A DNA stretch of 64,000 nucleotides from Myxococcota bacterium (GCA_023150835.1 JAKLKB010000035.1:1-64000), one strand, 5' to 3'. Positions 1 through 40,950 are shown, numbered from the stretch's first letter. Numbers and translations are program-made. The notes: a model not told the origin generated them from the letters alone.

Positions 1-107
1 GGCTTTTTTTGGAAAAGAAGGCGATGTACAAAACCAACAACGGCTTTTTTTGGAAAAGAAGGCGATGTACAAAACCAACAACGGCTTTTTTTGGAAAAGA
101 AGACGAT
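1..107. repeat. 41-bp tandem repeat, ~2.6 copies visible, may extend past the left edge
   Basis: Unit GGCTTTTTTTGGAAAAGAAGGCGATGTACAAAACCAACAAC starts at 1, 42 and 83 (partial); no spacers. Confidence 0.9.
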
Positions 108-131
108 ACAGGCCGAGGGGTGGGAGATCGC

Positions 132-821
132 TTAGGGTTTTGGGATGGAGCGGGTGAGAAGTCGTTTGGTCTCGCGGAGGGCGTTGTGGGTGCGTTGGGT
201 GAAGGTGTCGATGGGGAGGGGTTTGTTGTGGCGCTTGGCTTGTGTGACGAGGCCAAGGATCTGGTGGGCGTGGAGGGGGGCGTCGAGATCGGGGCGATTG
301 TCGCCACGTGTCCAGCAACGCCAGAGGTGCGGGTCGTCAGGCGCGGGGCAAGAGGGAAGGTGGAAGACACCGCTCCATGCGTTGGCGGCTCTATGGAGCA
401 TGGAGGGAGGCTGGGGGGACAGGCTGGTGACGCGATGGATGATCCAGCGGTGTTCGAGGGCAAAGACGATGATCTGGCCGATGCGGATATCGGGCCATCG
501 GAGGGGGACGAGGGCGACTTGATCGCCAGTTTGGAGGAAGGGGCGCATGGAGAGGCCTGTGGTGGAAAGCCAAAGCAGATCGAGACGGAGATCACCCCAA
601 CGAGAGCGCCAAAGTTCGGAGGCGTCGCAAGCGATGACGCTTTGTGAGAGGGAGAGGATGCGGGTTTCGTTGGTTGCGAGGGAGCGCACCAACAGGCCGG
701 AGGGAAGGCGGGTGTGAGCGCAAAAGAGTTCCCATCGGTGTGTGAGGGAAGGGAGGAAGAGGAGGCTATGCGGGGGGAGGTGAAGGGCGAGGGTGGGGAA
801 GAGGCGGGGAGGGGATGTCAT
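132..821 (-). CDS. S24/S26-family (signal peptidase I-like) peptidase, Ser/His type; putative RiPP leader peptidase
   Basis: Motifs TGLSMRPFLQTGD (catalytic Ser box), IIHRV (His at the general-base position) and TRGDN; no obvious TM anchor; ATG lies 5 nt after the stop of the 60-aa ORF. Confidence 0.8.
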   Translation of the reverse strand: MTSPPRLFPTLALHLPPHSLLFLPSLTHRWELFCAHTRLPSGLLVRSLATNETRILSLSQSVIACDASELWRSRWGDLRLDLLWLSTTGLSMRPFLQTGDQVALVPLRWPDIRIGQIIVFALEHRWIIHRVTSLSPQPPSMLHRAANAWSGVFHLPSCPAPDDPHLWRCWTRGDNRPDLDAPLHAHQILGLVTQAKRHNKPLPIDTFTQRTHNALRETKRLLTRSIPKP

Positions 822-826
822 GGGGG

Positions 827-1009
827 TTAGGAGGGTTGAGGGAGGCAGTCCTCGTTGCAGGGATCGTTAAACTCAAAACATCGATCACCGCTTTTTCCCG
901 CGCTTTCGAGGGCGTTATTTTCGAACAATGGCTCGGTTTGGATGGTGGGGGGGTGGTAGGGGCGTTTTGGTGTTGGTTGCGAATGATTTTCTGCGGAAGG
1001 TTCGAACAT
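827..1009 (-). CDS. Putative RiPP precursor peptide (60 aa)
   Basis: ATG with AAGGAG RBS 9 nt upstream (1019-1024); KRPYHPPTI resembles the YxxPxL RRE-binding leader motif; Cys44/51/55; C-terminal Ser; lies in an RRE/rSAM/kinase/peptidase cluster. Confidence 0.75.
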   Translation of the reverse strand: MFEPSAENHSQPTPKRPYHPPTIQTEPLFENNALESAGKSGDRCFEFNDPCNEDCLPQPS

Positions 1010-1086
1010 CTTGGAAGTCTCCTTGTTTTTGGGGGACGGTAGATGGGATGCGAAGAAGTGCTGCGTTGGAGAAGGGCACGAGACAG

Positions 1087-4000
1087 TTAATAAACAACGT
1101 AGAGGTTGCCTTTGGCAGAGGTGCCCGTTTCAACGAGGACGAGATCAGGGAAGCCATCACCGTTGAGATCGAGGCCACCGAGCAGGCTATTGTAGCCCAA
1201 GCCAACGTTCGCAGCACTTCCAAACCAATGGATATCGGCTTTGGCGTTGAGATCGCCGCCGGTTAGGTTGTTGAAAGAGTTACCAAAAAAGAAATGGGCG
1301 GAGCCGGCGTTGCTTTGGGGGTTATCAGAAAGCCCGTTGCCGATCATGAAGTCGGCGTAGCCATCGTTGTCGACGTCGCCTGCAGCGCTTGCGGTGGAGA
1401 TTTGAGAGCCGGAGGGGCCGTAATAAATCAATTCGGCGTCGCTTTCGAGGAGATCTTTGCGTTGGTTGAGTTTTTGGCCGGAGAAAAGGAAAGCAGCGCC
1501 ACCCGTGTGGCCTTGGGGGGCGACGCGGGTGGTGTCGATGATCACGAGTTCAGGGGAACCATCTTTGTTCACGTCGCCCACAACGGAGACGAAGTTTCCG
1601 AATCGGGAGCCGGAGGTGCCTTGGATGGTGAGGGTGGCTTGGCTGCTTTTGATTTCCTTGGTGGTGGGTGTGGCAAGGAGGGGTCCATAAAAGATCATAA
1701 CGCGAGAGCTTGCGAAAGAAGGCACGATGAGATCAGCGTGGCTGTCGCCGTTGAGATCCGCCAAACGCGGGACGGTGGCGAAGGAGGTCGCGGTGGGGAG
1801 CGAATCGTTGTAGATGCGGATATCTTCGAATGTTGCGTCGCCTTTGTTTAAGACGAGTTTGTTGGGTGCTGCGGGGTAGGTAGAGCGACCAAAAAAGATA
1901 TAGATTTGGCCTTTTGCGGTGGTGTTTGGGATAGGTTCGGTGGGAGCGGATACGACAAGATCGGCGCGTGTATCGGAGTTGAGATCGGGGATTCCTCGGC
2001 GGCCTGCGGCTGCGAGTCCAAATCCAAAAAGTCCGTCGCCGTTGAGGACGACTCGCGAGGGTGTGGCGATGCTGCCGGTGGTGATGCTGTTTCGTGGGCC
2101 GCCGAAGACGATATAGACGCGGCCTTTGCTGCTGTTGGTGTAGGGGGCACCGACGGCAAAGTCATCGAAGCCATCGTTGTTGAGGTCGCCCATTCCGACA
2201 AGGCTTTGGCCGATGCGCTGGCTGCTGTCTTCGCCGTAGAGGGTGACGTCGGGGGCTGAGGGGAAAAGAGAGCCAGAGGAGGCAGGGCGGCCATAGTAGA
2301 TGTAGACCGCACCTGTACGTGTTTTGTTGGGTTCGGTGTCTGAAGGGTTAGAGACGACGAGATCGAGGAGACCATCTTTGTCGATGTCACCGACGATGGC
2401 GGTGGCGGCTCCGTAAAGGCCCGCGTCAGGCCCAATCGCGGCGAGGGTTTGTTGTTTGAATTGGGCCGTTACGGAGACGTTGTTGGAGATAGCCGAGAGA
2501 TTTCCAGCGCGGTCGATGGCACGGAGGGCGAGGGTGTATTTTTGTCCGATGCGGAATTGATCGATGACGAGAGTTGCGGTTTGTCCGGGTGTTCCGACGA
2601 TGTTACTTTGTTGGACGTTTGTTATGCCGGCCCAATTGGCATCGTTGATAGGGCCATCGCCTTTGAGCCAGCGGGCTTCGTAACGAAGCAGGCCGGAGGG
2701 GCTAGGACCCGTATCTTGGGAGTGTGCCCATGTAAGTTTGAAAGAGGCTTTGCGGTGATCGACGACTTCGACTTTGAGGTCGTTGATGGCGTTAGGAGCG
2801 GTGGTATCGATGATGACGGTGTACTGAAGGGTTGTCGATTTCTGGTTTTTTTTGGTCACTTTGACGCTGATTTTGTTTTCACCTTCTTGGAAGGTGATTC
2901 CTTGGAAATCGACGTTGCGGAGTCCAGCGGCAGCATCGACGAGGGTTTTGGTTTGAGATTGTCCGTTGATGGTGAAGTCGGCAGGTTGTCCGACTTCGGC
3001 GTCGCTGGTGCAGGACAGGCCATTTTGGACGCCTTGGGCTTGCGGATCTGTGTCGTCTGCGCTGGAAAGGTTTGCGGAATTGTTGGTGTCGAAAGCAGGG
3101 CCTTTGATGAGCTTGCAAGAAAGGGCGGGAGCGCCTTGTTCTTCGACGGTCACTTTGACGGCGGGGGAGTTGGTTTTGAGATTGCAGGTGGGTTCGAAGG
3201 CGTTGAGTTGGAAGGTGTTGTCTTGATTTTCGACGAGGGTAACGAGGAAGGTGACGACGCTGTTGTTGGCTTTTTGGATGAGTTCTTTTCCGTTGAAGAG
3301 CAGTTTGATATCCGTCCCGTTGGGGGCGCTGGTTGTGGCGCGAACGGTGTACTGAACGCCGGTGGTTTGGGGATCTTCGTCGCGACTGGCGGGGATTTTT
3401 TGTCCTTCAAGGATGTTTGCAAACGAGATGTCGTGGCCGCGAGTGCGGATCTGGACTTTGGATTCGGCGCTTTCACCGAAATTTTGGAGTGGATCTTTGA
3501 CGGTGGTTTTGAGCGTGTGTTGAAGCAGGGCGTTGATGGAAGTGAGTGTGACGCGGAAAGAGACTTTGCCGCTGTTGACTTTGTTGGGTCCAGCGAAGGG
3601 AAGGCCGTCAAGGAGGAGGTTGGCATCACTACCATCGCGAGCGTTGGTGGAGACATCGACTTGGAGTTGAAAGCCATCGGTTTGGGGGTCGAGGTCGTCG
3701 GGTGGGCAGAGGAGCTTGTTGTGGGTGGGGGAGTCGATCACGACGGTCGGTGCGGTGTTGAGGATTTGGAATTTGATTTGATTTTGGCAGCGATTTCCGG
3801 CTTTGTCGGTGATTTTGGCGGTGAGGGTGACGTCTCCGTCGGGGAGGGTGGTTTTGGTAAAGATGGCTTTTCCTGCAAGGACGGGAGCCGAAAGGGTTTG
3901 AGGGCTACCTTTGCCGTTGTCGAGGGTGATTTCAACGTCTTCGCCGGGTGCGGGGGGGGGTTCGACAAGGACTTCGATGGTTTTTTGGAGGCCGGGGGTT

Positions 4001-4491
4001 TCGGTATTTTCGTCATCTTTGGGGCCAAACACATCGCCGGCGATGGGTTTATTGATTTTGATTTGGAAGCATTGAGAGTCGACGGTGACGTTGAGAGCGT
4101 CGGAAAGGTAAGTTTGACCGTTGGCGGCGGTGAGCTTGAGTTGGAGGATGTTGGCCCCTTCGGCGAGAGTATAGCGCTGGAAGGTGAATTCGGTTGTGGT
4201 GAGGTTGATTTCTGCGGGGTTTCCGCCGTTGGTGGTGAGAGTGACTTTGCTGTTTTCGGGGGCGTTTTCGGTTTTTCCTCGGAGGGTGAGTTGAAATCCG
4301 GGGGTTTGTGGATCTTCGTCTTGTTGGGCATTAAAGTTTTTTTGAGAGATGCCGACGAATTGGATGGTTGTGGGGCCGGGCGGAGGGCCGCCACCACAGT
4401 TGCAGGCAGTGGTCGAACCTGTGAGCAGGGCCAAGCACAACCATCCCAACAGGGCGAGGCGTTGGGGTATTTTTTTGCGAGGGATAGACAT
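1087..4491 (-). CDS. Large surface lipoprotein: Ig-like repeats, FN3-like domain, FG-GAP (integrin-alpha-like) beta-propeller
   Basis: Signal peptide ending STTAC; five DxD/NxxxxGxQ motifs; FN3-like TYTLALRAIDRAGNLS-type segment (YTLALRAIDRAGNLS); multiple GD(I/L/V)(D/N)xDG and G(A/R)VY repeats. Confidence 0.85.
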   Translation of the reverse strand: MSIPRKKIPQRLALLGWLCLALLTGSTTACNCGGGPPPGPTTIQFVGISQKNFNAQQDEDPQTPGFQLTLRGKTENAPENSKVTLTTNGGNPAEINLTTTEFTFQRYTLAEGANILQLKLTAANGQTYLSDALNVTVDSQCFQIKINKPIAGDVFGPKDDENTETPGLQKTIEVLVEPPPAPGEDVEITLDNGKGSPQTLSAPVLAGKAIFTKTTLPDGDVTLTAKITDKAGNRCQNQIKFQILNTAPTVVIDSPTHNKLLCPPDDLDPQTDGFQLQVDVSTNARDGSDANLLLDGLPFAGPNKVNSGKVSFRVTLTSINALLQHTLKTTVKDPLQNFGESAESKVQIRTRGHDISFANILEGQKIPASRDEDPQTTGVQYTVRATTSAPNGTDIKLLFNGKELIQKANNSVVTFLVTLVENQDNTFQLNAFEPTCNLKTNSPAVKVTVEEQGAPALSCKLIKGPAFDTNNSANLSSADDTDPQAQGVQNGLSCTSDAEVGQPADFTINGQSQTKTLVDAAAGLRNVDFQGITFQEGENKISVKVTKKNQKSTTLQYTVIIDTTAPNAINDLKVEVVDHRKASFKLTWAHSQDTGPSPSGLLRYEARWLKGDGPINDANWAGITNVQQSNIVGTPGQTATLVIDQFRIGQKYTLALRAIDRAGNLSAISNNVSVTAQFKQQTLAAIGPDAGLYGAATAIVGDIDKDGLLDLVVSNPSDTEPNKTRTGAVYIYYGRPASSGSLFPSAPDVTLYGEDSSQRIGQSLVGMGDLNNDGFDDFAVGAPYTNSSKGRVYIVFGGPRNSITTGSIATPSRVVLNGDGLFGFGLAAAGRRGIPDLNSDTRADLVVSAPTEPIPNTTAKGQIYIFFGRSTYPAAPNKLVLNKGDATFEDIRIYNDSLPTATSFATVPRLADLNGDSHADLIVPSFASSRVMIFYGPLLATPTTKEIKSSQATLTIQGTSGSRFGNFVSVVGDVNKDGSPELVIIDTTRVAPQGHTGGAAFLFSGQKLNQRKDLLESDAELIYYGPSGSQISTASAAGDVDNDGYADFMIGNGLSDNPQSNAGSAHFFFGNSFNNLTGGDLNAKADIHWFGSAANVGLGYNSLLGGLDLNGDGFPDLVLVETGTSAKGNLYVVY

Positions 4492-4722
4492 TGATTTTTC
4501 TCCATTAAAGCAAAAACAACCACCAAGGCGACCAAGGTAAGGGTTGCGTCAAACGGCGGGCGCTAGGTGTTTTGGGTTACGCAGGCTTCTTGGAAAGAAG
4601 ACAAGGGTCACATCAAACGGACTATAAAGACTTTTGTTGGTGAAAGAAAGTCTCTTACTCGTAATTTTCTTGTGGAGAAGGCACGATCTTATCCACCTGT
4701 CGGGTGGTTTGGGCAGGTTGGC

Positions 4723-5979
4723 TCACTGGTGCCGTTGTTGGGTGTAGTGGTTTTGTGGGGGAAGGGTTGCGATGTGTTGCAAGAGGTTTTGGAGTCCTTG
4801 GGGGAGCGAGCCACAAGAGGAGCCGCAAGAGGTTTTCTTTGGGGTTGAATGGGTGGTTGAGCCGAGAGGAGGGGTGTGTTGGGCAAGTTGTTGAAGGGCG
4901 GAATGGAGGTGGTCTTTGGAGAACGAGGGAGGGCGTAGACCGTTGCGTTCTTCCCAGACTTGTCGGCGGACACGAGCGAGTGTGCAGAGAGCGGTGCTGG
5001 GCTTGGTAGGGTCGCCTGTATCGAGCAGAGCCGAACTGGGGCAGTAACTACAGTGAGATTGATCGGGGCAGACTTGGCAGATGGGGTCTTGAAAGCGTTG
5101 GAGGCTGCGGATGGATTGGATTTCTTGTCCTTGCCAGATCTCTAGCAGGCTTTGGTTGCGGAGGTTTCCGAGAGAAGGGATCAAATCCATGCAAGAGTAG
5201 ACTTGGCCGTCGCATCCGATGACGACGCGAGTACGTCCGGCGCCGCAGATCGGGCTGTTGGGGATGGCGGGTCGTGGTTCGAGTTGTTTGGCGAAAGAAG
5301 GATCGCGTTCTGCCATGAGATGGTAGAGGTAGGCGAGTTCGTCGGCTTGGACTTGCATGGAGAGAGGGTGGCGTTTGCGGTCGTGGGTAGCGCTGACTTT
5401 GAAGTCGATGACAAAGCGAGCGTCGAGTTGTGCGGCAAGTGTGCGCGTGGGGATGATTTGGCCGAGGTTTTCTTGCATTTGAAGGTATTTGATCTCGGTT
5501 TGTATGCCGACACTTCGGAGGTTTTGGAGTCCTTCGACGGTTTTTTGCCAAGAGCCCGAGATTTGGGTGATGGCGTCGTGGGGCGCGGGTTCAGCGGCAT
5601 AGAGTGTGACGGAGGCGGCGTGAACTCCGGCCTGTTTGAGTTTTTGGGAGCGTTCGAGATTGCAGGGGGTTCCTGAGGTAAAGAGGGTGATGACAAAGCC
5701 GTGTTGGCTGGCGTGGTGGATAATTTCGTAGATATCGGGGCGTAGGAGGGGTTCGCCGCCAGTGAAGGTGATGCTGGTGGAACCAAGGGCTGCAAGTTGA
5801 TCGAGAGCGTCTTTGACTTCGGGGAGTGTGAGCTCTTGGCGAGGGTTTTCAACGAGATAACATTGTTGGCAGTGGAGGTGGCATCGTTCTGTGAGGGTAA
5901 AGAAGACGCTTGCGGGGATATTGTTTCGCAAGATGCGTTCTTTGAGTTTTTGGCTAATGGAAGTGGTGGGGTGGGACAT
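4723..5979 (-). CDS. Radical SAM/SPASM domain peptide maturase
   Basis: CHLHCQQC (CxxxCxxC), TGGEPLL, SPASM CGAG...DGQVYSC...CQVC...CSYC...C. Confidence 0.92.
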   Translation of the reverse strand: MSHPTTSISQKLKERILRNNIPASVFFTLTERCHLHCQQCYLVENPRQELTLPEVKDALDQLAALGSTSITFTGGEPLLRPDIYEIIHHASQHGFVITLFTSGTPCNLERSQKLKQAGVHAASVTLYAAEPAPHDAITQISGSWQKTVEGLQNLRSVGIQTEIKYLQMQENLGQIIPTRTLAAQLDARFVIDFKVSATHDRKRHPLSMQVQADELAYLYHLMAERDPSFAKQLEPRPAIPNSPICGAGRTRVVIGCDGQVYSCMDLIPSLGNLRNQSLLEIWQGQEIQSIRSLQRFQDPICQVCPDQSHCSYCPSSALLDTGDPTKPSTALCTLARVRRQVWEERNGLRPPSFSKDHLHSALQQLAQHTPPLGSTTHSTPKKTSCGSSCGSLPQGLQNLLQHIATLPPQNHYTQQRHQ

Positions 5980-6108
5980 TGTGGGCTCCTTGCGAAGCGT
6001 GGGGTGTTGGGCTGAAAAAGCTGCGCGTGGAGAGTGTGAAGGGGAGAAGAGAGCGTTAGATGCGCAGCAAGAAGTGTTGGATGCGGTGTTTTGGCTTTGT
6101 ACGCGGGG

Positions 6109-6390
6109 CTATTTCTCCTCAAAGGAAAGGAGTTCTTTGGATTGGAGGATGGCGACAAAGCGTTGAAGATCAGCCAGAGCATATTCTGGGGAGACATCGA
6201 ACAGGGCGGAGACTTGGTTTGCGATGGTTTGGAGATCGTGTTGTCCGTCGCACAAAGACCAGATGAGAGCGCCTGTGGCGTTGAGTTCGTGGAGCTTGGC
6301 GTGGGATGCGTCAAGCAAAAAGGTGGCGTCGTCAAAGTTGCGGGTGCCGACGGTGGGGTTTCGTTTGGGTCGTATGTGGCGGGCGATCAT
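6109..6390 (-). CDS. PqqD-family RiPP recognition element (RRE), 93 aa
   Basis: LNATGALIWSLCDG...LFDVSPEYALADLQRFVAILQSKELL is typical of PqqD; ATG at 6390 follows AAGGAAG. The longer ORF-track extension overlaps the upstream gene. Confidence 0.9.
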   Translation of the reverse strand: MIARHIRPKRNPTVGTRNFDDATFLLDASHAKLHELNATGALIWSLCDGQHDLQTIANQVSALFDVSPEYALADLQRFVAILQSKELLSFEEK

Positions 6391-6415
6391 ACAAGATGCT
6401 TCCTTGTGTTGTGTT

Positions 6416-7447
6416 TCAAGCCGACATGGCGGCATTTGAGAGAGTTGGGTGCGGAGTGGTTGGATGAGCGAGAAGTTCCCAATAGGCGTTTGTGGGGGGA
6501 GTTTCGAGCAGGTCGCAAAAAGGGAGCCATTGATCGAGGAGCTCCATGAGTAGTAGTTGTTCGCGTTGGTTGGGGAAACTAAAGCAAATAACGCGAGCGA
6601 GGCGTTGGAAGGATTCGCGGGGAGAGAGGGGGTGTTTGGCGGGAGAGGTGGCGCGTTTGAGAAAGTGGATGCCTGCGAGGGGGGCGGCGATCTCTTCGCC
6701 GGGAGCGCCCCAATCGCCATAGAAGGGAGTGCCATAGGCGTACAAATTGCGGGGATTTTGTGGGTTGGGTCGAAGGGCCACGATCTCGTCGCTGAGGATC
6801 TGTGTGTTGGGAGGGGCGTTGCGGGTGGCGGTGGTTTTGCCGGACCCAGAGGTCCCAGCGAAGAGGTGGGCTTGCCCATCGCGAACGAGGCCCGAAGCAT
6901 GGAGCAAGGCACCGCCAGAAGCGAGGAGTTGGCGGTGGAGTAAGAATTTCCAGAAGGTTTGCACGACAGCACGAGCGGACTTGGGTAAAGGAGAGATCAA
7001 GCGCGCAGGGCCGAATTGTGGGACAAGAGCGGCAAAGCGGGTGTGCAAGACCCACAAGCCATCGGAGGATTCTTCGACGTGAAGCATGAGGGAGTGTTGG
7101 GCGCTGGGCTGGGGGGCGAGTTGTTTTTGTTCGGCGGCTTTTTCGTAGAGAGGTGTCAATTGCTCGAAAAGGGCGAGGATAGAGTGTTCGTATTTTTCTG
7201 TAAGTCCGGCACTACCGATGAAGTGGATGGCCATGTCTGCGGGTTGCGGTTGGGGAGGGGAGAGGAATTTGTGTTGGAAGATATCGTCGAAATGGGCGTA
7301 GATGGTGTCGGCGAGTTCTTGGGCATGGAGGGAACAAGAGGTTCCAGCGACCTGTAGGCGCAAAAACTCGGGGGGGCAAGGGGGAGGTTGGAGCAAGATG
7401 CGTTTGGCATCTTCGATAAAGGGTTGGCAGAGGAAGGTGGTGGGCAT
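6416..7447 (-). CDS. HPr-kinase-like P-loop kinase (RiPP-associated)
   Basis: LLHASGL, Walker A GTSGSGKTT, ILSDE, YGTPFYG; adjacent to the RRE. Confidence 0.8.
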   Translation of the reverse strand: MPTTFLCQPFIEDAKRILLQPPPCPPEFLRLQVAGTSCSLHAQELADTIYAHFDDIFQHKFLSPPQPQPADMAIHFIGSAGLTEKYEHSILALFEQLTPLYEKAAEQKQLAPQPSAQHSLMLHVEESSDGLWVLHTRFAALVPQFGPARLISPLPKSARAVVQTFWKFLLHRQLLASGGALLHASGLVRDGQAHLFAGTSGSGKTTATRNAPPNTQILSDEIVALRPNPQNPRNLYAYGTPFYGDWGAPGEEIAAPLAGIHFLKRATSPAKHPLSPRESFQRLARVICFSFPNQREQLLLMELLDQWLPFCDLLETPPTNAYWELLAHPTTPHPTLSNAAMSA

Positions 7448-7629
7448 GAGGTTCTCGTTGTGTGGGGTTATAAGGAGCAGTCCACGGAAAGCACGGAAAA
7501 GTGAAAGAGGTCAAAGGCCATCAGAGAGCGAAAACAAGTCGCACCTTGGGAAGGGCTTGCGCAAGCGCTATACCGCGCCACGCGAGAAATCGTACAGGAA
7601 AGAGAGATGAGGGGGGGGCTGTTGTGTCG

Positions 7630-8571
7630 TCAAGAGGCGGTCGTTTGGGAGAGGATCGCTTGGAGTGGGTTGGCGACATACGGTTGAGAGCAAAAGGAGA
7701 GTCCACATTTGGCGAAGTGGTGGGCGTTTTCGGGTTCTTTGCGTCCGAGGCAAGCGCGGGCGAGGGAGAGGTAAAGTTCGGCGAAAAAGGGGTATTGGTG
7801 TTCGTCTTGTTGGCTGTAGGTGAGGGCGGCAAAGAAGGCGCTGGCTTTTCGGGAGATGCGGCGGTGGAGGGGGAGGTCTTTGCGGCCAGCTTCGGAGATA
7901 CGGGCGCTTTCGATGAGCGCATCGAGATTTTCTTGGAGGAGAGTGCTGGCGCGTCGGTATTCGTTGCGAGCGAGGGCGATCTCGCCACGTATGGCGTCGA
8001 GGATGTAGCGGTGGGGGGGGCCGCTGGTGATCTCTTCGGCTTCGCTGAGGGCGAGGTCGGCTTGACGTAGGGCGTCTTGGTTGGAGAAGCAAAGGGCGAA
8101 CAGGCGGGCTTTTTGAGCGAGAAGCCCAGCACGAAGTAGCGAGGGTGGGACGTGTTCGAGGGCTTCATCGAGGATCTCACGGGCGCGTTGGGGATAGCCG
8201 AGGCGGCGTTCGAGATCGGCTTCCATACCCCAAACAAAAGCGGCTTCCATGCCGGTATCACGGGATTTTTGGAGCAGGCTTCGTGCAAGGGTTTCATCGG
8301 CTTCTTCGATGGCGAGTTCGGTTTGCATTCGCAGATACGCTTCATAAGGAAGCAACAGCCGCCAAAACAGCAGGTGTCTTCGAGCGGATCGAAAACGGCC
8401 TTGGCTGCGCAGTTTTCCGATATGCCGATAATGCGCAAACACGGCCATGACCATCGGGAAAAGCAGCAAGATCCCGAGCAAAAGGCCATCAATCGGCAGC
8501 CGCAGACCATAAGAGAGAAAGACGATCCCCAAAAAAGGGAACAAGATAAACAAGAGTACACGAAAGAACAT
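7630..8571 (-). CDS. Membrane protein with 2 N-terminal TM helices and a TPR-like helical region
   Basis: ATG 8571 follows AAGGAAG; hydrophobic N-terminus; TPR-like segments such as AIRGEIALARNEYRRASTLLQE. Confidence 0.65.
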   Translation of the reverse strand: MFFRVLLFILFPFLGIVFLSYGLRLPIDGLLLGILLLFPMVMAVFAHYRHIGKLRSQGRFRSARRHLLFWRLLLPYEAYLRMQTELAIEEADETLARSLLQKSRDTGMEAAFVWGMEADLERRLGYPQRAREILDEALEHVPPSLLRAGLLAQKARLFALCFSNQDALRQADLALSEAEEITSGPPHRYILDAIRGEIALARNEYRRASTLLQENLDALIESARISEAGRKDLPLHRRISRKASAFFAALTYSQQDEHQYPFFAELYLSLARACLGRKEPENAHHFAKCGLSFCSQPYVANPLQAILSQTTAS

Positions 8572-8687
8572 GCGATCTTCCTTGTGTGGGGTTTGATGGC
8601 AAGCGGTCCCGTTGTTGGGCCACAGGGGGCTTCGGACGACGAAAACGAGAAAGATGCGACTGTAAAATGGCAAGCGGTCCTGTTGTT

Positions 8688-8800
8688 GGGCAGCCACAGG
8701 GGGCTGCCCCTACATCGGTCGCTCACACAACGACGTTGTTTTTGTGAGTGGGATGGTTGCGGGGCTGTCCCTACGTAGGTCGCTCGCACGATGGGCGGAT
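8688..8800 (-). repeat. Two extended GTAG-type REP copies
   Basis: Reverse complement of GTAGGGGCAGCCCCCTGTGGCTGCCC at 8688-8713, with a degenerate second copy at ~8759-8800. Confidence 0.8.
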
Positions 8801-8806
8801 GTTGTC

Positions 8807-10821
8807 TTATTCTTTTAACAGGCCGATGCGGTCGGCCAGATCGTTGGTGAGGATGCCCGCTGGATCGAGTTGGCTTTTGAGAGAGCGCAACTGTCGTAGG
8901 CGATCCGCAGGAAAAGAGCGTTTGAATTGGTTTTCTGTCAAGAGGCCGTCTTTGGCGAAATAAAATCGCCCGCCGTGTTGGAGGACGACTTCGGTCATCT
9001 CGTGGGCGAGTCGATGGAGTCGGCGTTGGTTGCGTTCGCGGACGGGGTAGTCGAGCGCAAAGCTGTATCCGTCCACGTTGTAGGACATCAAGAAAGGATC
9101 GGGGAGGTGTTTTTTGAGGACGGCCAAAAAAGGCGGGATTCCCGCTTTTTGTGACAAAAGGATCTGTTGCTCGAAGACTTGTCGTGCGGCAGCTTTGGGG
9201 ACAAAGGTTTGGTATTGGATCAGGCCGCCCGGTTGGTAACTTTTTTGCCATCCCGGGACGTAATCCAGCAAGAAGTTGAATCCAGCGTGGCTTTGTCGGT
9301 ACGGTGGGCGCGAGGCTTCGCGGCGGTCTGCGTAAAACTTGGCGGTGTTGACCAACCGCATCCCGGGCCGATGCAAGAACATCCACAGCCCCATCCACAG
9401 CATCGATTTGGGGACAACGCCGAGGAACACTTCGGGGAGTTCTTGGTAAGAGAGTTTGAGCGTGTGGTGAGGGCGCTTGTCTTCGCCTTCTTGGAGGTTG
9501 CGTGCGACGTGCAAGGTTCCTCGCCCCAACTGAAAGCCGGGCGCAAGCGCATCGACCCAGCCCACAAGGTAATCTTGATCGAGGTGTGCTTCCATCACGT
9601 CGATCATCTCTTGGATCGAGCGTGTCGAAAAGGTTTCGACCAAGACTTCGCCGCTGTAGACGCGCTTCATTTGCAATCGAATCCGCGTGATCACCCCCAA
9701 TACTCCGCCTGATCCGATCACTCCATAAAAGACCTCGCGGTGTTGACTCGGCGAACACGTCAACAAGCGCCCATCCCCCGTCAAGACATCGATCTCCAAA
9801 ACATGATCGCCGAGCGTCCCGTATTTGAAGCTGTTCTTTCCGTGTATATTGACGCCCAATCCCCCCCCAAGTGAGGTGCGCATCGTTCCGCTGACCACAG
9901 GCGGCCACCAACCATCTTCGAGCGTGTAGTGCCACAGATCCACAATGCGCACCCCCGGCTCAACATCGATCACTCCGTTGCTCGGATCCCACGCCAAGAC
10001 CCGTCGCATCCGCGTCAAATCCAACAACACACGATCTTGGCCGATACTGGCGTCTCCATAACTTTGTCCGCTTCCGCGCAACGTGATCTTGACCCCTTCT
10101 TCGTGGGCTCGCTCAAGGATCCTCTGCGCTTGCTCCACAGTCGTTGGGCGCGTCGCATACATATCCGCACCATGCGACATCCCCCATCCGCGCACCCGCT
10201 CCATCCGCGATGACAACACCAAACCACCGCTCAATAATGCTTGCTGCATCTCCCCTCCTTCCTCTGGACTCTGCATCTCCCCTCCTTCCTCTGGACTCTG
10301 CATCTCCCCTCCTTCCTCTGAACTCTGCATCTCCCCTTCTTCCGCTGAACTCTGCATCTGCGCAATTTTCGTCTCTTCGTCTGGCTCGTTTGCCTCCGTA
10401 TGCTCGGAGTGTGTTGTGGGTTCTTTTGGGGCGGTGGGTTGCGAAACGGGAGATTCCTGCGGGTCGTCGTACGAAGTGTGAAACTCGCGCTGGTCGTTTT
10501 CCGTGTTTTCCGTGTTTTCCGTGTTTTCCGTGTTTTCCGTGTTTTCCGTGTTTTCCGTGTTTTCCGTGTTTTCCGTGTTTTCCGTGTTTTCCGTGTTTTC
10601 CGTGTTTTCCGTGTTTTCCGTGTTTTCCCCGTGTTTTCCGTGTTTTCCGTGTTTTCCGTGTTTTCCGTGGGCTCTTTTGAGGCGGGATGGATGGGGGCGG
10701 AGTGGTTGAGTTGGCGGAGTTGGGCGTCGACTTCTTCGACGGCGCGGGCGAGAAGTTCTTCTTGTGTTTTTTGGGATGGTGGGTTTTTGGGGGGTGATTT
10801 TTTCTTTCGAGAAGCAGCCAT
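8807..10821 (-). CDS. DprE1-like FAD-linked oxidoreductase with long disordered N-terminus; apparent frameshift at ~10627-10628
   Basis: [37 protein letters not shown] 10821 has an AAAGGA RBS, but two extra bases in the 9-bp repeat shift the frame. The catalytic part is intact in ORF 8807..10918. Confidence 0.8.
10244..10341. repeat. 27-bp coding tandem repeat (MQSxEEGGE, ~4 copies)
   Basis: CTGCATCTCCCCTCCTTCCTCTGGACT-like units. Confidence 0.85.
10501..10664. repeat. 9-bp VNTR (CCGTGTTTT): 14 units + CC + 4 units, encoding ENT repeats
   Basis: Counted directly; interrupted by CC at 10627-10628. Confidence 0.95.
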
Positions 10822-10866
10822 GAGGTGATCCTTTTGGGCGAGAGGCGAAGGTGTCGAGGGGGTGGG

Positions 10867-11637
10867 TTAGAAGGACATCTTGCGAAACAGGAAGCTGGGG
10901 ATTTGGCGGATGATCCACATGATCGGTCGCCAGATGCCGGGGACGTAGACGATGTTTCGGCGAGCGTGGATGGATTTGGCGATGCGCATGGCGGCTTGGT
11001 GAGGTTCGAGGATAAAGGGTTGGTTTTTGAGGTGAGCGGTCATGGGAGTACGGACGGGGCCGGGTTTAACGGTGAGGACGTGGACATCGTGAGGGGCGAG
11101 TCGATTGCGGAGGGATTCGAGGTAGGTGTCAAGAGCGGCCTTGGAAGCGGCGTATACGGTGTTTCCGCGTCGTCCACGATCACCTGCGACCGAGCCGATA
11201 CCGACGATGGTTCCGCGTTTGGTTTGGGAAAAGCGTTTGGCGGCTTCGTTGAGCCAAGCGATGGCTCCAAGGAGATTGATCTCGATGATCGATTGATCTT
11301 TGGTGAAGTCGAATTCATCGGGTGCGAGGGTGGGCATGATACCAGCGGCGTAGACGACGAGTTCAAGGCCGGGGGCTTGTTGGGAGATTTGTTGGAAGAG
11401 AGCGGGGATCTCGGCGTAGTGGGTGGTGTCGTGTGGGAAAGGAAAAGCGATGGGATCGGTGTGGCCTTGGTTGATCTCGGCAGCGAGTTTGCGCAACAGC
11501 TCGATGCGACGGGCGACGAGAGCGACGGCGTAGCCTTCTTTGGCGAGGTGACGGGCCAAGGCTTCTCCGATCCCTGAGGAAGCTCCGACAATCAACGCGA
11601 CGGGGCGAGCAGCGCGCAACAGTGTTCCACTTGTCAT
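10867..11637 (-). CDS. Short-chain dehydrogenase/reductase, DprE2-like
   Basis: GASSGIG, SVAGDRGR, YAASK, KPGPVRTPMT; directly upstream of the DprE1-like gene; GGAG RBS before ATG 11637. Confidence 0.85.
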   Translation of the reverse strand: MTSGTLLRAARPVALIVGASSGIGEALARHLAKEGYAVALVARRIELLRKLAAEINQGHTDPIAFPFPHDTTHYAEIPALFQQISQQAPGLELVVYAAGIMPTLAPDEFDFTKDQSIIEINLLGAIAWLNEAAKRFSQTKRGTIVGIGSVAGDRGRRGNTVYAASKAALDTYLESLRNRLAPHDVHVLTVKPGPVRTPMTAHLKNQPFILEPHQAAMRIAKSIHARRNIVYVPGIWRPIMWIIRQIPSFLFRKMSF

Positions 11638-11759
11638 CCGAATCTCCGATACGTAGGGGTTGATCAGGGTGATCCTTTGATCAAAAGGCATTGCTTTAAC
11701 ACAAACCGCACAAACAAGGGAGGGGCTTTTTCTTTGCTTGCTACGCAAGTCTTTTCATC

Positions 11760-11788
11760 TTGACGGCGGTGGTTGATTTTTCTATCAT
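11760..11788 (+). promoter_or_regulatory. Putative sigma70 promoter
   Basis: TTGACG-17 nt-TATCAT upstream of the CDS at 11868. Confidence 0.6.
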
Positions 11789-11867
11789 CGCCAGACACGC
11801 ACCAAGAGTTGAAGCGTTTCGGATATTTGTTGATACGAGGGGTCTTCCCAAAACAAAGGAGGGTACG

Positions 11868-12704
11868 ATGTTGCTTCGTTGGTTGGGTGGTTTGGTGATC
11901 GTGATCGGGTTGCTTTTGGGGGGTGGAAGGGTTGCGCACGCGCAAGAGGATTGCGGGATCACGGGGTACACACAACAGGCTTGCCATGCGGAGTTTGTGC
12001 CGACGCGTCAGATGTTGGGTGGGGGAGTGCAGCAGTTGGTGTATCGCTCGAATGATGGGGCGATGGCGATTTATCGGGCGATTCCGCACAGTATGGTGGC
12101 CAATTATGCCGATCCGTTCAAGACATTGATCGATCAGGCGCGGGATACGTTTATGAAAGATTGGCAATCCACGCCGAGAGAGATGTGGGTGAAAACAGTC
12201 GAGGGGATCGACTCTTTTGTGATGGCGTTCCCGGGGCAGCGTTTTGTTGCGGTGACACCTGTTCGTGCGGGATTTTTGATCGGGGCCTTTCAGATCCCGA
12301 GCCAAACAAGCCCGCTGTTTGTGTACCTCAAGCAAGAAAGACTGGCTCCGCGTGCGAATCCCCCGCAAATCAGCCATATCAGGCCGCGTTATCCGATGCA
12401 AGCCTCAGGTGGTTCTCAAGATTCGGGGAGTACGCAAGTCCCGGAAACGGGGGCTTTGTGGCGTTGCGATTCACAAGGGACGTACAAGATCTGCGAGAGA
12501 AGCAGCGGCTCGGCATGGGAGCGGAATTGTCGGAGTCGGACTTCGTCGGCTGTGGGTTTTGGGGCGTCTCGTTTGATGGCGCAGACCAAGGCGAATGGCA
12601 GTTGTTCGCATCACATGACGAAGATGATCTTAATTTCGAATATCGGTGGTGGGGGCTATCGGGTGTCGGGGTGCCGTGCGATCTCTTGTCGGCGCGTGCG
12701 CTAA
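11868..12704 (+). CDS. Secreted hypothetical protein with Cys-rich C-terminal domain
   Basis: AAAGGAGG RBS; signal peptide ending AHA|QE; six Cys in the C-terminal ~80 aa. Confidence 0.7.
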   Translation: MLLRWLGGLVIVIGLLLGGGRVAHAQEDCGITGYTQQACHAEFVPTRQMLGGGVQQLVYRSNDGAMAIYRAIPHSMVANYADPFKTLIDQARDTFMKDWQSTPREMWVKTVEGIDSFVMAFPGQRFVAVTPVRAGFLIGAFQIPSQTSPLFVYLKQERLAPRANPPQISHIRPRYPMQASGGSQDSGSTQVPETGALWRCDSQGTYKICERSSGSAWERNCRSRTSSAVGFGASRLMAQTKANGSCSHHMTKMILISNIGGGGYRVSGCRAISCRRVR

Positions 12705-38142: not shown

Positions 38143-39648
38143 TCAAACTTTGGTGGCGAGTCGAATGTATTCGAGCAGCGTTGCGATGCCGAAGCCCGTT
38201 CCGCCACGGCGCAAGATCCCAAAGTCACGTTCGACATGCGCGGGTCCAGCGATATCCAAGTGCGCCCAGTTCACGCCTTCTTTGACAAACTCGCGCAAGA
38301 ACAAGCCTCCCGCGATCGCTCCTCCCCAACGCTCCCCAACGTTCGAGAGATCGGCGATGTTGCTTTTGAGTCCTTCGCGCACGTCTTCCAACAACGGAAG
38401 CGGCCAAAACGATTCGCCCACCTTTTCGCCTGCGGATTTGAGTTCATCGGCCATCGTTGGCGTGTTGCTCATCACGCCGGCGGTGTAGCGCCCCAGAGCG
38501 ACCATACAAGCCCCCGTCAAGGTCGCCAAGTCGATCACATGGGTGGCTCCTTGATCACAAGCGTAGCTCAAGGTGTCACCAAGCACCAAACGCCCTTCGG
38601 CGTCGGTATTGAGGATCTCGACGGTTTTTTTGTTGTAGGCCGTCACCACGTCGTTGACGCGAAATGCCGCAGCACCCGTCATATTTTCGGCGGCTGCGAT
38701 GTAGCCGTGTATCTCGAAGGGAGGCTTGAGTTGAGCGATCGCTTGCATCGCACCAAAAACAGCGGCTCCACCGGCCATATCCGCTTGCATCCCGTTCATG
38801 CTGGCAGCGGGTTTGATGCACAAGCCGCCCGAATCAAAAGTCAATCCTTTGCCGACGAGAGCGAGGACCATCGAACCTTTTTTGGGTTTTTTGGTGGGTT
38901 TGTAGACCAAGCGGATCAGGCGGCAAGGCTGAGCGCTACCCGCCCCAACAGCCAAAAACATGTGCATACCAAGTTCGCGCATCTGCGTGTCGTCTAGCAC
39001 TTCGCAAACCAAGTGGTAGGCGTTGGCCATCTCTTGGGCGCGCTTGGCAAATTCGGGGGGATGCAAGACACAAGGAGGTTCGTTGACGAGATCGCGAGCC
39101 GCAAAGATCGCGTCGAGGTAGATCTTGGCGTCATGAAAGGCATCTTTGAGGGCTTTGTTTTGGGCCGCGTTGGGTTTTTGTGGGCATTGCAGCCACAAGG
39201 ATTTCAGACTGGCGGCTTGGGCATCTTTGGTTTTGTACGTCAAGAAGCGGTACGAGACCAAACCCGCCCCCATCGCGGCTGCAAAGGCTTGGGCCGCCCA
39301 TGCCTCGGGTTCGTCTCCCAAGGTGATCGCAAGGCTGGTGGCTTTTTGTTGGTTGGCGGTTTCGGCGAGACTGGCGGCAAGGCTTTGCCATTCGGCGGGC
39401 TGGTTGGGCTTTTTGTTGCCCAATCCCACAACCAAGACTTGCCGTGCAGCCAAACGGCCCATCGGCGTCAACAGTAGCCGTTGGCCTGCTTTTCCTTCGA
39501 ATCCTTGGGCTTCTGCGAGATCTTGTAAGGGACCGCCCAGCGCGGTATCCAAGGCTGAAAAGCTATCATCTTTGTCTGTTCCGCCTACACACACCGCCAA
39601 CATATCAACTTTGGCTTGGAGATCCTGCTCTGCGATCTTGAAATCCAT
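38143..39648 (-). CDS. pepA: Leucyl aminopeptidase (M17)
   Basis: VGKGLTFDSGG, DMAGG, NTDAEGRL, DLATLTGA, WAHLDIAG. Confidence 0.93.
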   Translation of the reverse strand: MDFKIAEQDLQAKVDMLAVCVGGTDKDDSFSALDTALGGPLQDLAEAQGFEGKAGQRLLLTPMGRLAARQVLVVGLGNKKPNQPAEWQSLAASLAETANQQKATSLAITLGDEPEAWAAQAFAAAMGAGLVSYRFLTYKTKDAQAASLKSLWLQCPQKPNAAQNKALKDAFHDAKIYLDAIFAARDLVNEPPCVLHPPEFAKRAQEMANAYHLVCEVLDDTQMRELGMHMFLAVGAGSAQPCRLIRLVYKPTKKPKKGSMVLALVGKGLTFDSGGLCIKPAASMNGMQADMAGGAAVFGAMQAIAQLKPPFEIHGYIAAAENMTGAAAFRVNDVVTAYNKKTVEILNTDAEGRLVLGDTLSYACDQGATHVIDLATLTGACMVALGRYTAGVMSNTPTMADELKSAGEKVGESFWPLPLLEDVREGLKSNIADLSNVGERWGGAIAGGLFLREFVKEGVNWAHLDIAGPAHVERDFGILRRGGTGFGIATLLEYIRLATKV

Positions 39649-39708
39649 TTCTGTTCCTTTCTTCCTGTATTTCTCGAACGGTGCTGTTTCGCTGTGCTTT
39701 GACAACGG

Positions 39709-40950
39709 GTGACTGTTATGCTTTTTATACGTGCGCTGAAACCTTGTCTATCGGAAAGATTGTTTTGCGCGATCAAACGAGGGAGCTTTTGCTTGGCGAC
39801 AGGTCTGTCTTCTTCTTTGTTTTTGGCGGACGAGATGTGGTTGATGGCGTTGTGCTTTCCTGTGCGGCCCGATGCGCCGTCACCCTTCGATCTCGAAGCG
39901 ATGGTCCGCCATCTGCCTTTGCCCGATCTTGCGCAGCTTTTTGAGCGTGCGCAACACGAACGCTTGTTGCCACTGTTGTCATGGAAGCTACAACATCCCG
40001 ATGGATGGCCTTTTTCGATCCGAACGCAGATACCACACCTCCCTGACGAGATCCGTCAACGCGCTCGCAGCGCCCTTCGCCAACAGCGAAAATCTGCGAT
40101 GCTCCGAGAGGCTCTGCTACAGGATGTGGCCCATCACCTTCAAGTACTCGATACCCACGCGATCCTCTACAAAGGCTCGGCGTACGAACGCTCGTTGTAC
40201 TCGGAACTTGGCCTGCGACCGATGGTTGATACCGATATCATCGTACCGTCCTCCGCTTACGAGTCGTTATGCCATCGCCTCGAACAACACGGATATCACA
40301 GGCTGATCAAGCATTCTCACGAACAAAGTTTTCACCACCCGCCCACGGCAACCCTTCTTGATGTTCATCGGGCGCTTTCGCCCGAACAAGAGGGGCTTTT
40401 TGATGTCTCGGCGCTTTTTCCTTTGGGGGTGCCGCTGGGGGCGGCCCCTGCTTATTTGGTATTGCCTCCCGCGATGTTGCTGTTGTTGCATCTGTTTCAT
40501 CTGCGCGGCAACGGTATGAATCCAATCGAGGCTCCGTTGTTGTCGGTTGTGGATCTGTTGTTGCTTGCCCAACGGGCGATAGAAGAACGCGAGAGATTGT
40601 GGGGGGATGCGCAGCGTTGGCGATGTGTGGGGCTGTTGCGTCTTGCCGATGCGTTGCTCCAAGGGCTTTTCTTGACGCCGCCGCTACCGCTTGCACCGAC
40701 GTCTCGGTCACCTTGGGAAGCCTTGCAACGTGTTGCCTTGCCCCGATTGTTGGCCTGTATCCGACAGGCCAAGCATCACGCTGAGGTGCCCCGCTCTAGT
40801 TTCCAAAGCCCGCAAGATCAAGCCTTACGGTCGTTGCTGCGTTTCTTTTGCTACGACACTCTTCCCGATCTGCTGCGCAGTCAAACCGCCAAGGCCATGC
40901 GGCTGCTCGCACGAACCCTCAAGGAGCGCGCAGCTCGTCGCGGTGGGTGA
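39709..40950 (+). CDS. Nucleotidyltransferase family protein (NTP_transf_5-like)
   Basis: LYKGSAY...LYSELGLRPMVDTDIIV...LDVH; real start may be ~39835-39844. Confidence 0.8.
   Translation: MTVMLFIRALKPCLSERLFCAIKRGSFCLATGLSSSLFLADEMWLMALCFPVRPDAPSPFDLEAMVRHLPLPDLAQLFERAQHERLLPLLSWKLQHPDGWPFSIRTQIPHLPDEIRQRARSALRQQRKSAMLREALLQDVAHHLQVLDTHAILYKGSAYERSLYSELGLRPMVDTDIIVPSSAYESLCHRLEQHGYHRLIKHSHEQSFHHPPTATLLDVHRALSPEQEGLFDVSALFPLGVPLGAAPAYLVLPPAMLLLLHLFHLRGNGMNPIEAPLLSVVDLLLLAQRAIEERERLWGDAQRWRCVGLLRLADALLQGLFLTPPLPLAPTSRSPWEALQRVALPRLLACIRQAKHHAEVPRSSFQSPQDQALRSLLRFFCYDTLPDLLRSQTAKAMRLLARTLKERAARRGG

Follow-up and report, generated by a model that had tools for sequence, protein, structure and literature searches.

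The first 64 kb of contig C190 from a Myxococcota bacterium (GCA_023150835.1; G000:C190:1-64000), the whole stretch analyzed here and called the window, carries a minus-strand operon of six genes at positions 132-7447. We propose, with moderate confidence, that this operon matures a ribosomal peptide. The precursor would be guided by a separate recognition element, modified at Ser by a kinase, cross-linked at Cys by a radical S-adenosylmethionine (rSAM) enzyme and freed of its leader by an S26 peptidase. The system appears to be a pathway of the RiPP type (peptides synthesized on ribosomes and modified after translation) made of known modules (recognition element, rSAM/SPASM enzyme and HPrK-like kinase) in an uncharacterized combination; its precursor family is newly delineated, and an S26B protein is the putative leader peptidase. 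This four-step proposal was derived from the presence of lasso peptide elements without the lasso machinery, namely, the kinase fold, a discrete PqqD protein, a YxxP leader, a near-invariant Ser and the nucleotidyltransferase family NTP_transf_5. The initial annotation had described a hybrid pathway in which lasso-type accessories serve an rSAM enzyme. The conserved operon, the YxxP precursor family, the RiPP recognition element (RRE) and the kinase fold uphold that description, whereas the locus is not a one-off, since related cassettes are widespread.

A conserved operon and its precursor peptide

The operon consists of six complete, co-oriented genes that lie head to tail with intergenic gaps of 5 to 231 nucleotides (nt). 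From the upstream end, these encode a ScmC-family P-loop protein of 343 amino acids (aa) with the predicted fold of phosphoenolpyruvate carboxykinase (PEPCK) and HPr kinase, a putative peptide C-terminal Ser kinase (6416-7447); a PqqD-family peptide chaperone of the stand-alone RRE type (93 aa, 6109-6390 after its start codon was re-placed); an rSAM/SPASM enzyme (418 aa, 4723-5979); an FG-GAP/Ig-like lipoprotein (1,134 aa, 1087-4491); a 60-aa precursor peptide (827-1009); and an S26B (Sec11/SipW-type) signal-peptidase-like protein without a predicted anchor, the putative leader peptidase (229 aa, 132-821). Open reading frames (ORFs) and family scans placed all six genes on the minus strand, as the initial annotation had reported. 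The lipoprotein matched PF01839 (5.7e-40), PF13517 and Big_13. The small ORF has the sequence AGGAG 9 nt upstream of its ATG, and its product contains the motif YHPP and is made up of the leader KRPYHPPTIQTEPLFENNAL, a core with three Cys residues and a C-terminal Ser. A scan of positions 1-12000 with Rfam gave no family at the gathering score, and a promoter and terminator scan of positions 1-9000 was uninformative (1 promoter-like site versus 2.1 expected).

The same six genes were found in the same order in two public metagenome-assembled genome contigs labeled Myxococcales and Deltaproteobacteria (L011 and L012). Their rSAM enzymes are 46-48% identical to that of the window, their kinases 41-47% and their lipoproteins, which occupy the same operon position in both contigs, 39-40%; lipobox-like motifs, LVGC and LLGC, occur in the L011 and L012 lipoproteins. 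Between the lipoprotein and S26 genes, both contigs contain an ORF of 59-60 aa that aligns with the window's peptide. Because the order is the same in both and the small ORF itself is conserved, the operon order is not a product of chance. A fourth genome of the family (G004) has a cassette, L066, with the kinase, PqqD, an FG-GAP protein of 1,158 aa, a family precursor and S26 and without the rSAM gene. The expectation that rSAM homologues keep the same neighbors and YxxP peptides agrees with L011 and L012; L066 keeps all of the genes except the rSAM gene. The FG-GAP lipoprotein gene lies inside the operon in all four cassettes and is an integral, conserved operon member in this lineage rather than a passenger. 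The GTDB phylum of the window comprises six genomes only, neither the rSAM gene nor the kinase gene was seen in two other genomes of the same genus (86% and 64% complete), and a metagenome scan returned two short fragments of close relatives (L019 and L020) and otherwise distant rSAM proteins only.

Contig C190 begins at position 1 of the window, and the initial annotation had allowed for further operon genes beyond that edge. The S26 gene is complete, and nothing but a 41-bp tandem repeat (1-107, 2.6 copies, found by a repeat scan and given no strand) lies between its stop codon and the contig end. Copies of this repeat with 87-91% identity occur on contigs C224, C201 and C21, in at least one case close to where the contig begins; the unit is probably a dispersed intergenic repeat that broke the assembly. 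L011, L012 and L066 share the same borders: an M17 aminopeptidase gene stands upstream of the kinase and a MoxR gene downstream of S26, followed, where the contig continues, by genes for a DUF58 protein and a Ser/Thr protein kinase. Since all three relatives are bounded in this way, the operon ends with S26. When the MoxR neighbor was sought in the window's own genome, eight paralogues were found at 37-48% identity, with no clear orthologue among them.

These flanks also bear on the reading that this is an ordinary lasso peptide cluster cut by the contig end, with the cyclase and the B2 protease beyond position 1. The position of the window at a contig end would allow it; the YxxP leader, the discrete PqqD and the HPrK-like kinase are known from lasso clusters; and the genome has four matches to PF00733 (Asn_synthase), located on three other contigs. 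We nevertheless consider this reading extremely improbable. PF00733 matched none of the 8 window proteins and none of the genes that flank the cassette in L011, L012 and L066, and the B2 protease family PF13471 had no match in the operon or anywhere in the 93%-complete assembly (7.56 Mb in 239 contigs). In the three syntenic relatives, MoxR follows S26 and M17 precedes the kinase, with neither cyclase nor B2 protease. In addition, the cores are without an obvious lasso signature and share Cys and a terminal Ser instead. The earlier statement that the locus has no lasso cyclase stands for the operon and for the flanks of the three relatives.

A profile built from the three peptides was searched against 1.84 billion representative proteins at E ≤ 1e-3 and returned 55 matches, 54 of which are short peptides of 42-106 aa. 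The other match, a 1,185-aa repeat protein with nine stretches that match the profile (P0096), was dropped as low-complexity noise. The pattern Y..P is present in 54 of 54 short members, at least one Cys follows the leader in 53, and the C terminus is Ser (50 peptides), Thr (3) or Val (1). Although the query profile includes the terminal Ser as a column, the match stops at or before profile position 56 in 42 of the 54 peptides, leaving that Ser unscored, and 38 of these 42 still end in Ser. By comparison, of the 4,679 ORFs of 40-110 aa in the same loci, 537 (11.5%) terminate in Ser, and, as the family peptides are homologues, the excess of Ser ends represents conservation and does not test independent samples. 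Counted from the C terminus, the last Cys stands 5-8 residues away in 49 of 54 peptides and 6 or 7 residues away in 42.

An alignment of 28 precursor sequences contained invariant Y18, P21, E26, A33 and C51 and near-invariant F29, E30 and K39. The consensus is KRPYxKPx(I/V/F)xSExLFExxAL, followed by a small-residue stretch ending in K and then the core. Most of the distant members have a basic core with two Cys (ALxCGK...C...S), and cores in the window's clade are acidic with a single Cys, the window peptide itself having three; 47 of the 54 cores contain one or two Cys only. None of 14 family peptides tested matched any NCBIfam model at E ≤ 1, and the window peptide was assigned to no family in NCBIfam or Pfam scans. 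To judge from this sequence conservation, the small ORF is a genuine, conserved member of a putative precursor family with a YxxP leader.

Predicted enzymes and maturation steps

The PqqD protein matched PF05402 at 1.8e-15. Its NCBIfam matches were all below threshold: ScmD at 39.7 bits (cutoff, 100), the lasso PqqD model at 34.2 (cutoff, 70) and GeoRSP PqqD at 23.5 (cutoff, 100). The PF05402 match and the YHPP motif of the precursor agree with the previous call of a stand-alone RRE-type protein and a YxxP leader. A predicted complex of PqqD with the precursor reached an ipSAE interface score of 0.50, versus 0.00 for the best of three controls, with at least 96% contact agreement between runs and a partner predicted local distance difference test (pLDDT) value of at least 52. 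Of 157 solved complexes, 116 reached the pass mark of this prediction, as did 2 of 215 mismatched pairs; passing scores of ≤0.60 came from 18 of the 157 solved complexes and from both passing mismatches. RRE-leader complexes have already been solved structurally, and the pass may reflect likeness to them. The model lends weak computational support to contact between PqqD and a leader of the form KRPYxxPxI..E.LFE..AL, which the stand-alone PqqD/RRE would bind so as to present the core to the enzymes.

An alignment of 40 kinase sequences (A3) revealed invariant H183, G201, G203, K204, D220 and P241, in motifs comprising the His in LLHASG, the P-loop G.SG.GKT(T), the Asp in LSDD and GTP(F/W). We take this order of His, P-loop and Asp to be that of the HPrK/P catalytic domain. 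An alignment-based AlphaFold2 (AF2) model had a pLDDT of 89.7 and a predicted template modeling score of 0.88; a single-sequence model (pLDDT, 36.7) was discarded. With Foldseek, the significant Protein Data Bank (PDB) neighbors of the model were limited to ATP-dependent PEPCK (1ayl, E value of 2.1e-7) and HPr kinase/phosphorylase (1ko7 at 1.2e-4 and also 1kkl, 1jb1 and 2qmh; HPrK/P entries ranged from 1.2e-4 to 1.6e-3), with probabilities of 0.99-1.00. The template modeling scores were 0.19-0.45, and, since these are low, only the kinase core is shared with PEPCK and HPrK. A profile search of PDB sequences recovered PEPCK over the HAS...G.SG.GKTT stretch (5e-5). A precomputed annotation with PF27840, which the Atlas names ScmC, is attached to the window kinase and to all 101 homologues, and our Pfam scan, in which the model set did not contain PF27840, returned no match for the kinase. 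NCBIfam matches were again sub-threshold (ScmC, 7.4e-6; PEPCK, 2.5e-4; HprK_rel_A, 1.8e-3). The AF2 model, its Foldseek neighbors and the conserved His/P-loop/Asp residues identify the window protein, at the level of a structure prediction, as a P-loop kinase of the PEPCK/HPrK superfamily. It has a PEPCK-like fold with conserved His, Walker A and Asp, and it lies below the cutoffs for HPrK/P proper and for the HprK-related A and B kinases (TIGR04352 and TIGR04355, 200 bits each).

In a review (PMC8498205), HPr-kinase homologues of lasso clusters are described as phosphorylating the side-chain hydroxyl of the C-terminal Ser of linear precursors, with little recognized apart from this Ser; in pseudomycoidin, the phosphate is subsequently decorated with hexoses by a nucleotidyltransferase. 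By analogy with this precedent, and because 50 of 54 family peptides end in Ser, the window kinase most likely phosphorylates the last Ser of its precursor. The ScmC-family enzyme would thereby move a phosphate from ATP to the side-chain hydroxyl of Ser60. The designation as an HPrK-like kinase was borne out by the Foldseek result, and the precursors end in Ser like the substrates of the lasso kinases.

The rSAM enzyme matched PF04055 (6.2e-20) and PF13186 (1.6e-12). A large protein database contained 89 homologues, 16 of which form a tight group at E ≤ 4.4e-102, after which the E values drop to 1.3e-42. Invariant in these 16 are C33, C37 and C40 of the CxxxCxxC motif, the seven SPASM cysteines (C245, C263, C301, C304, C310, C313 and C332) and an extra residue, C385, in a short Cys motif about 50 residues beyond SPASM in the C-terminal tail (4723-4900). 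The sequence predicts three Fe-S sites. The closest solved relatives were split between SkfB (6.3e-22), a thioether former, and PqqE (6.7e-21), a C-C former, and no NCBIfam equivalog cutoff was reached. A thioether from Cys S to carbon is the likeliest product. The enzyme would form an intramolecular cross-link at the conserved Cys 5-8 residues before the C terminus; this is the weakest step of the proposal, because the sister cassette has no rSAM gene. A related rSAM/SPASM gene with 30% identity to that of the window lies elsewhere in the sister genome (L030, G004:C114, 2847-5645). It was considered as a trans partner for the rSAM-less cassette and dropped, as it stands beside transposase-like and GNAT-like genes without PqqD or a kinase.

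The S26 protein matched TIGR02228 at 2.5e-9 (37.2 bits versus a cutoff of 51.85), and the homologue in L032 passed the cutoff at 61.5 bits. Among seven cassette-linked S26 proteins (A6), G89, S91, M92, H129, R130, G173 and D174 are invariant, and the motifs G-x-S-M/SM.P, HR(V/I/L) and the GD box are kept in all seven. The S26 profile also matched human SEC11C (7p2q, 3.1e-11) and SEC11A (2.4e-10) with the motifs aligned. We assume that the SM.P and HR motifs supply a Ser-His catalytic dyad. By these motifs and matches, the protein is of the Ser-His, Sec11/SipW (S26B) type. It differs from the Sec11/SipW signal peptidases in its sub-cutoff TIGR02228 score, in an extra N-terminal domain of about 85 aa that characterizes the window's clade and in having no predicted anchor. 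A membrane anchor is unlikely, since the maximum Kyte-Doolittle value over 19-residue windows is 1.44 across the seven proteins, whereas the usual threshold is 1.6.

Gene fusions in L067 and L076 tie S26 to the kinase pathway. In L067, a single ORF of 428 aa combines the S26 domain with the kinase (9325-10608, plus strand), and long C-terminal extensions are found on the S26 proteins of L076 (5086-6792, minus strand) and L081 (3672-4718, minus strand). A gene that stands beside that of a cytoplasmic kinase, and in L067 is fused with it, points to leader removal rather than secretion. The anchorless S26 protein would release the leader in the cytoplasm by cutting at the run of small residues that follows AL (in the window, ALESA/GK), playing a part like that of B2. 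The proposal that S26 replaces the B2 peptidase accordingly holds for its location, with S26 at the place expected of a leader peptidase and L077 having a Transglut_core3 gene beside PqqD instead; the cleavage itself is inferred.

Related cassettes, contrary evidence and alternatives

A kinase profile run on 401 sampled genomes matched 97 genomes at E ≤ 1e-8 and 48 at E ≤ 1e-30 (counted from the table); the weak matches probably include true HPr kinases. Twenty loci from other lineages were taken as the best kinase match per further genome, with up to about 10 kb on each side and less at contig ends; two of the top-ranked loci, both in very short stretches, were skipped. These were scanned with hidden Markov models (HMMs) built from the alignments of this analysis. 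Kinase, PqqD and rSAM occur together in 12 of the 20 loci, the S26 domain in 9 and a precursor profile match in 7; 8 loci, several of them on short contigs, have no rSAM gene. All 11 ORFs found by HMM beside cassettes end in Ser. A looser motif screen yielded six more candidate precursors in the 20 loci, in addition to those of L032 and L033.

Pfam scans of the neighbors of 16 cassettes detected an NTP_transf_5 nucleotidyltransferase in 8, polysaccharide genes in 6, giant Peptidase_C25 proteins in 4 and ABC-2 exporters in 3. L077 has a lasso-B2-type Transglut_core3 gene adjoining PqqD, and L032 also has genes for a PEP-CTERM-type ATPase and chain length determination. None of 14 kinases from related cassettes reached the cutoffs of the ScmC, HprK_rel_A/B, HPr kinase or GeoRSP/HPr-rel-A models. 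From these profile comparisons, the operon is a member of a widespread set of ScmC-family cassettes that are predicted relatives of the catalogued, as yet uncharacterized SynChlorMet, GeoRSP and HPr-rel-A systems. The rSAM enzyme, which had been placed at the core of the pathway, is not clearly a core component, given its absence from the G004 sister cassette and from 8 of the 20 kinase loci. The system's core looks to be made up of kinase, RRE and precursor, in most cases together with S26, with rSAM as a frequent addition.

The only NTP_transf_5 (PF14907) gene of the window's genome lies 32 kb from the operon (39709-40950, plus strand) and adjoins an M17 aminopeptidase gene (38143-39705, minus strand). 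Since M17 flanks the cassette in three relatives and NTP_transf_5 stands beside the kinase in 8 of 16 other cassettes, this arrangement suggests that a rearrangement split off a former cassette member, which might act in trans.

A number of observations weigh against the proposed maturation pathway, and several of them concern the link between the precursor and the rSAM enzyme. In L066, only 78 bp separate PqqD from the FG-GAP gene and no rSAM gene lies within 19.9 kb, and the precursor of this cassette keeps the core Cys residues and the C-terminal Ser despite the absent enzyme. Longer family precursors stand beside the kinase in L068 (11786-12061, minus strand), L072 (4634-4858, plus strand) and L073 (9675-9899, plus strand); these are stop-to-stop ORFs of 75-92 codons with two Cys and a final Ser, and PqqD, rSAM and S26 were not detected within about 9 kb of them. 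As the conserved Cys and the Cys-to-Ser spacing are kept in these four loci, they are not tied to rSAM. No precursor candidate was found in 7 of the 20 sampled loci, including L074, L077 and L080, which have the full enzyme set. The eight peptides of the motif screen (L032, L033, L075, L076, L078, L081, L082 and L083) are not independent evidence for a terminal Ser, because the screen required a final S, T or C. The window's operon contains no exporter gene, and a large lipoprotein gene in a RiPP operon is unusual. The kinase reaches only 25.5 bits with ScmC (TIGR04249; cutoff, 125) and 17.4 with HprK_rel_A (cutoff, 200) and has no match to TIGR00679 (cutoff, 240) or PF07475. Finally, the best NCBIfam matches of the rSAM enzyme, although far below cutoff, are to the heme-pathway enzymes NirJ2 (1.5e-37) and AhbD (7.3e-35).

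These heme-pathway matches to NirJ2 and heme b synthase would fit a NirJ- or AhbD-like cofactor enzyme standing amid unrelated genes, with a small ORF that is no substrate. We consider this very improbable. The matches score 129.8 and 121 bits and are far under the 500-bit cutoffs, the 16 rSAM sequences form a tight clade set off by the sharp drop in E value, and rSAM, PqqD and kinase genes occur together in the 12 unrelated loci. NCBIfam and Pfam scans found no other genes for heme d1 or alternative heme synthesis nearby.

The persistence of the Cys-Ser pair in the rSAM-less loci L066, L068, L072 and L073 raises a different possibility, which is that the Ser phosphate is transient. Class III and IV lanthipeptide synthetases make dehydroalanine by phosphorylation followed by elimination. 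By a similar route, elimination would convert the terminal Ser to dehydroalanine, and the Cys 5-8 residues upstream would close a C-terminal lanthionine-type ring, with rSAM, where present, making a second modification. The narrow spacing between the last Cys and the C-terminal residue described above agrees with such a ring. The operon, however, yielded no lyase or cyclase domain in the NCBIfam and Pfam scans, and in the window's clade the one kinase-like enzyme would alone be left as a plausible catalyst of the elimination. In addition, the one characterized precedent of this kinase type has the phosphate kept and possibly glycosylated, and the presence of NTP_transf_5 in half of the 16 cassettes fits a retained phosphate. 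We therefore regard a lanthionine ring as decidedly unlikely and continue to favor a phosphorylated, cross-linked peptide.

A further alternative is that the ScmC-family protein is not a peptide kinase. Its ATP would then be spent otherwise, for example, on a sugar or lipid or on the FG-GAP protein, or it would be a scaffold, and another enzyme would use the terminal Ser for recognition or processing. In fold and profile comparisons, PEPCK, which acts on a small molecule, matches more strongly than HPrK/P; many cassettes lie among genes for PIG-L, DegT, Glycos_transf_4, Wzy_C, Poly_export and PEP-CTERM-type ATPase proteins; and giant surface proteins adjoin the cassette, with FG-GAP in this lineage and Peptidase_C25 in 4 of 16 others. 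Nevertheless, PqqD and the peptide family accompany the kinase with much greater consistency than any sugar gene does. L068, L072 and L073 pair it with a family precursor alone, and L067 fuses it to S26. Furthermore, the His/P-loop/Asp arrangement is shared with HPrK/P, and the cassette kinase of L082 matches the HPr(Ser) kinase model at 4.8e-7. A function other than peptide phosphorylation is, in our estimation, unlikely but deserves somewhat more weight than the other alternatives.

The giant Peptidase_C25 proteins are 1,216-1,757 aa long and lie directly beside the cassette in loci of other lineages (L070, 12499-16146; L079, 3755-8821; L032, 4306-8346, PorU-like; and L033, 10317-15587). Together with the polysaccharide neighbors, these giant surface proteins suggest a cell-envelope function more than an antibiotic one. 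The FG-GAP lipoprotein of the window could be a surface partner, a receptor or a target of the product. A bolder and quite speculative reading, to which we give little credence, is that ScmC cassettes constitute a widespread, unrecognized RiPP class in which Ser is activated and Cys closes a C-terminal lanthionine-type ring. In such a class, rSAM, nucleotidyltransferase and S26 would be optional, and the product would act with the adjacent giant surface proteins, FG-GAP or Peptidase_C25, and not as a free antibiotic. If true, this would represent a lanthionine route that needs no known lanthipeptide synthetase.

Relation to known systems and other features of the window

The pathway proposed here, with a phosphorylated and cross-linked peptide, shares features with several known or catalogued systems. 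To our knowledge, the family description of SynChlorMet stated that no precursor had been identified. SynChlorMet (TIGR04249, TIGR04248, TIGR04250 and TIGR04251; PF27840) similarly combines a ScmC-family protein with PqqD and a PqqE-like rSAM/SPASM enzyme, and ScmC and ScmD are the best NCBIfam matches of the window kinase and PqqD. The window differs from it in score (ScmC, 25.5 bits versus 125; ScmD, 39.7 versus 100; ScmE, 56.4, and ScmF, 84.8, versus 400), in having one rSAM enzyme and not two and in adding S26, the FG-GAP lipoprotein and an identifiable precursor. GeoRSP and HPr-rel-A (TIGR04302, TIGR04303, TIGR04352 and TIGR04355) are likewise computationally defined and contain PqqD with rSAM/SPASM or HprK-related kinases. 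Weak matches to all of these models were found in the window or the related cassettes, whereas the window rSAM enzyme scored only 94.9 bits against a GeoRSP cutoff of 400 and PqqD only 23.5 against 100.

Paeninodin-type lasso peptides and pseudomycoidin resemble the window in their HPr-kinase-like enzyme, PqqD/RRE, YxxP leader and Ser-ending precursor (PMC8498205). The resemblance to pseudomycoidin extends to the NTP_transf_5 gene that accompanies the kinase in 8 of 16 related cassettes and is present as the distant single copy in the window's genome. In contrast to the phosphorylated lasso systems, the window has no cyclase or B2 protease, has rSAM/SPASM and S26B instead, and has a kinase of the ScmC family that lies below the HPr kinase models. 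With the sactipeptide and ranthipeptide systems (SkfB and StsB), the window shares the CxxxCxxC motif and full seven-Cys SPASM domain of the rSAM enzyme, an RRE and a Cys-containing core. It differs from them in that its RRE is a separate protein, the StsB score is 96 bits versus a cutoff of 625 and the family cores have mostly one or two Cys. The window cassette also has a kinase and S26, its sister is without rSAM, and PqqE, a C-C cross-linker, is nearly as close a relative.

A literature search that covered few subscription journals found nothing relevant on SynChlorMet or the Scm gene names. The same search found no description of a system with kinase, PqqD, rSAM/SPASM and S26, of the precursor family or of a characterized product, in keeping with the earlier view that no characterized product of this composition could be named. 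The main text of a 2023 survey of RiPP rSAM enzymes does not contain the word "kinase" (PMC10288494). The ScmC, PqqD and rSAM/SPASM families have been catalogued as a "cassette of unknown product," and the present locus and its relatives supply a testable precursor family, recognizable by its YxxP leader and by a terminal Ser set at a fixed distance from a conserved Cys, together with a concrete job proposed for each enzyme. If the proposal is correct, a common, uncharacterized peptide modification system would be opened to coexpression and mass spectrometry. Phosphorylation of a C-terminal Ser, so far known from lasso peptides, would then extend to a second, much broader setting.

Two further features of this end of the window were recorded. 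Strand bias is very strong at window positions 1-9000: over the minus-strand operon, the GC skew of the plus strand is +0.27 to +0.43, so that C markedly outnumbers G on the operon's coding strand. Upstream, positions 8807-10918 on the minus strand encode an oxidase like DprE1, dependent on flavin adenine dinucleotide (NF053785, 1.1e-77, below cutoff). This protein has a low-complexity N-terminal extension of about 230 aa that derives from repeats at 10244-10359 and 10496-10669, one with a 9-bp unit (19 copies) and the other with a 27-bp unit (4.3 copies). The next gene after it, at 10867-11748, encodes a short-chain dehydrogenase/reductase.

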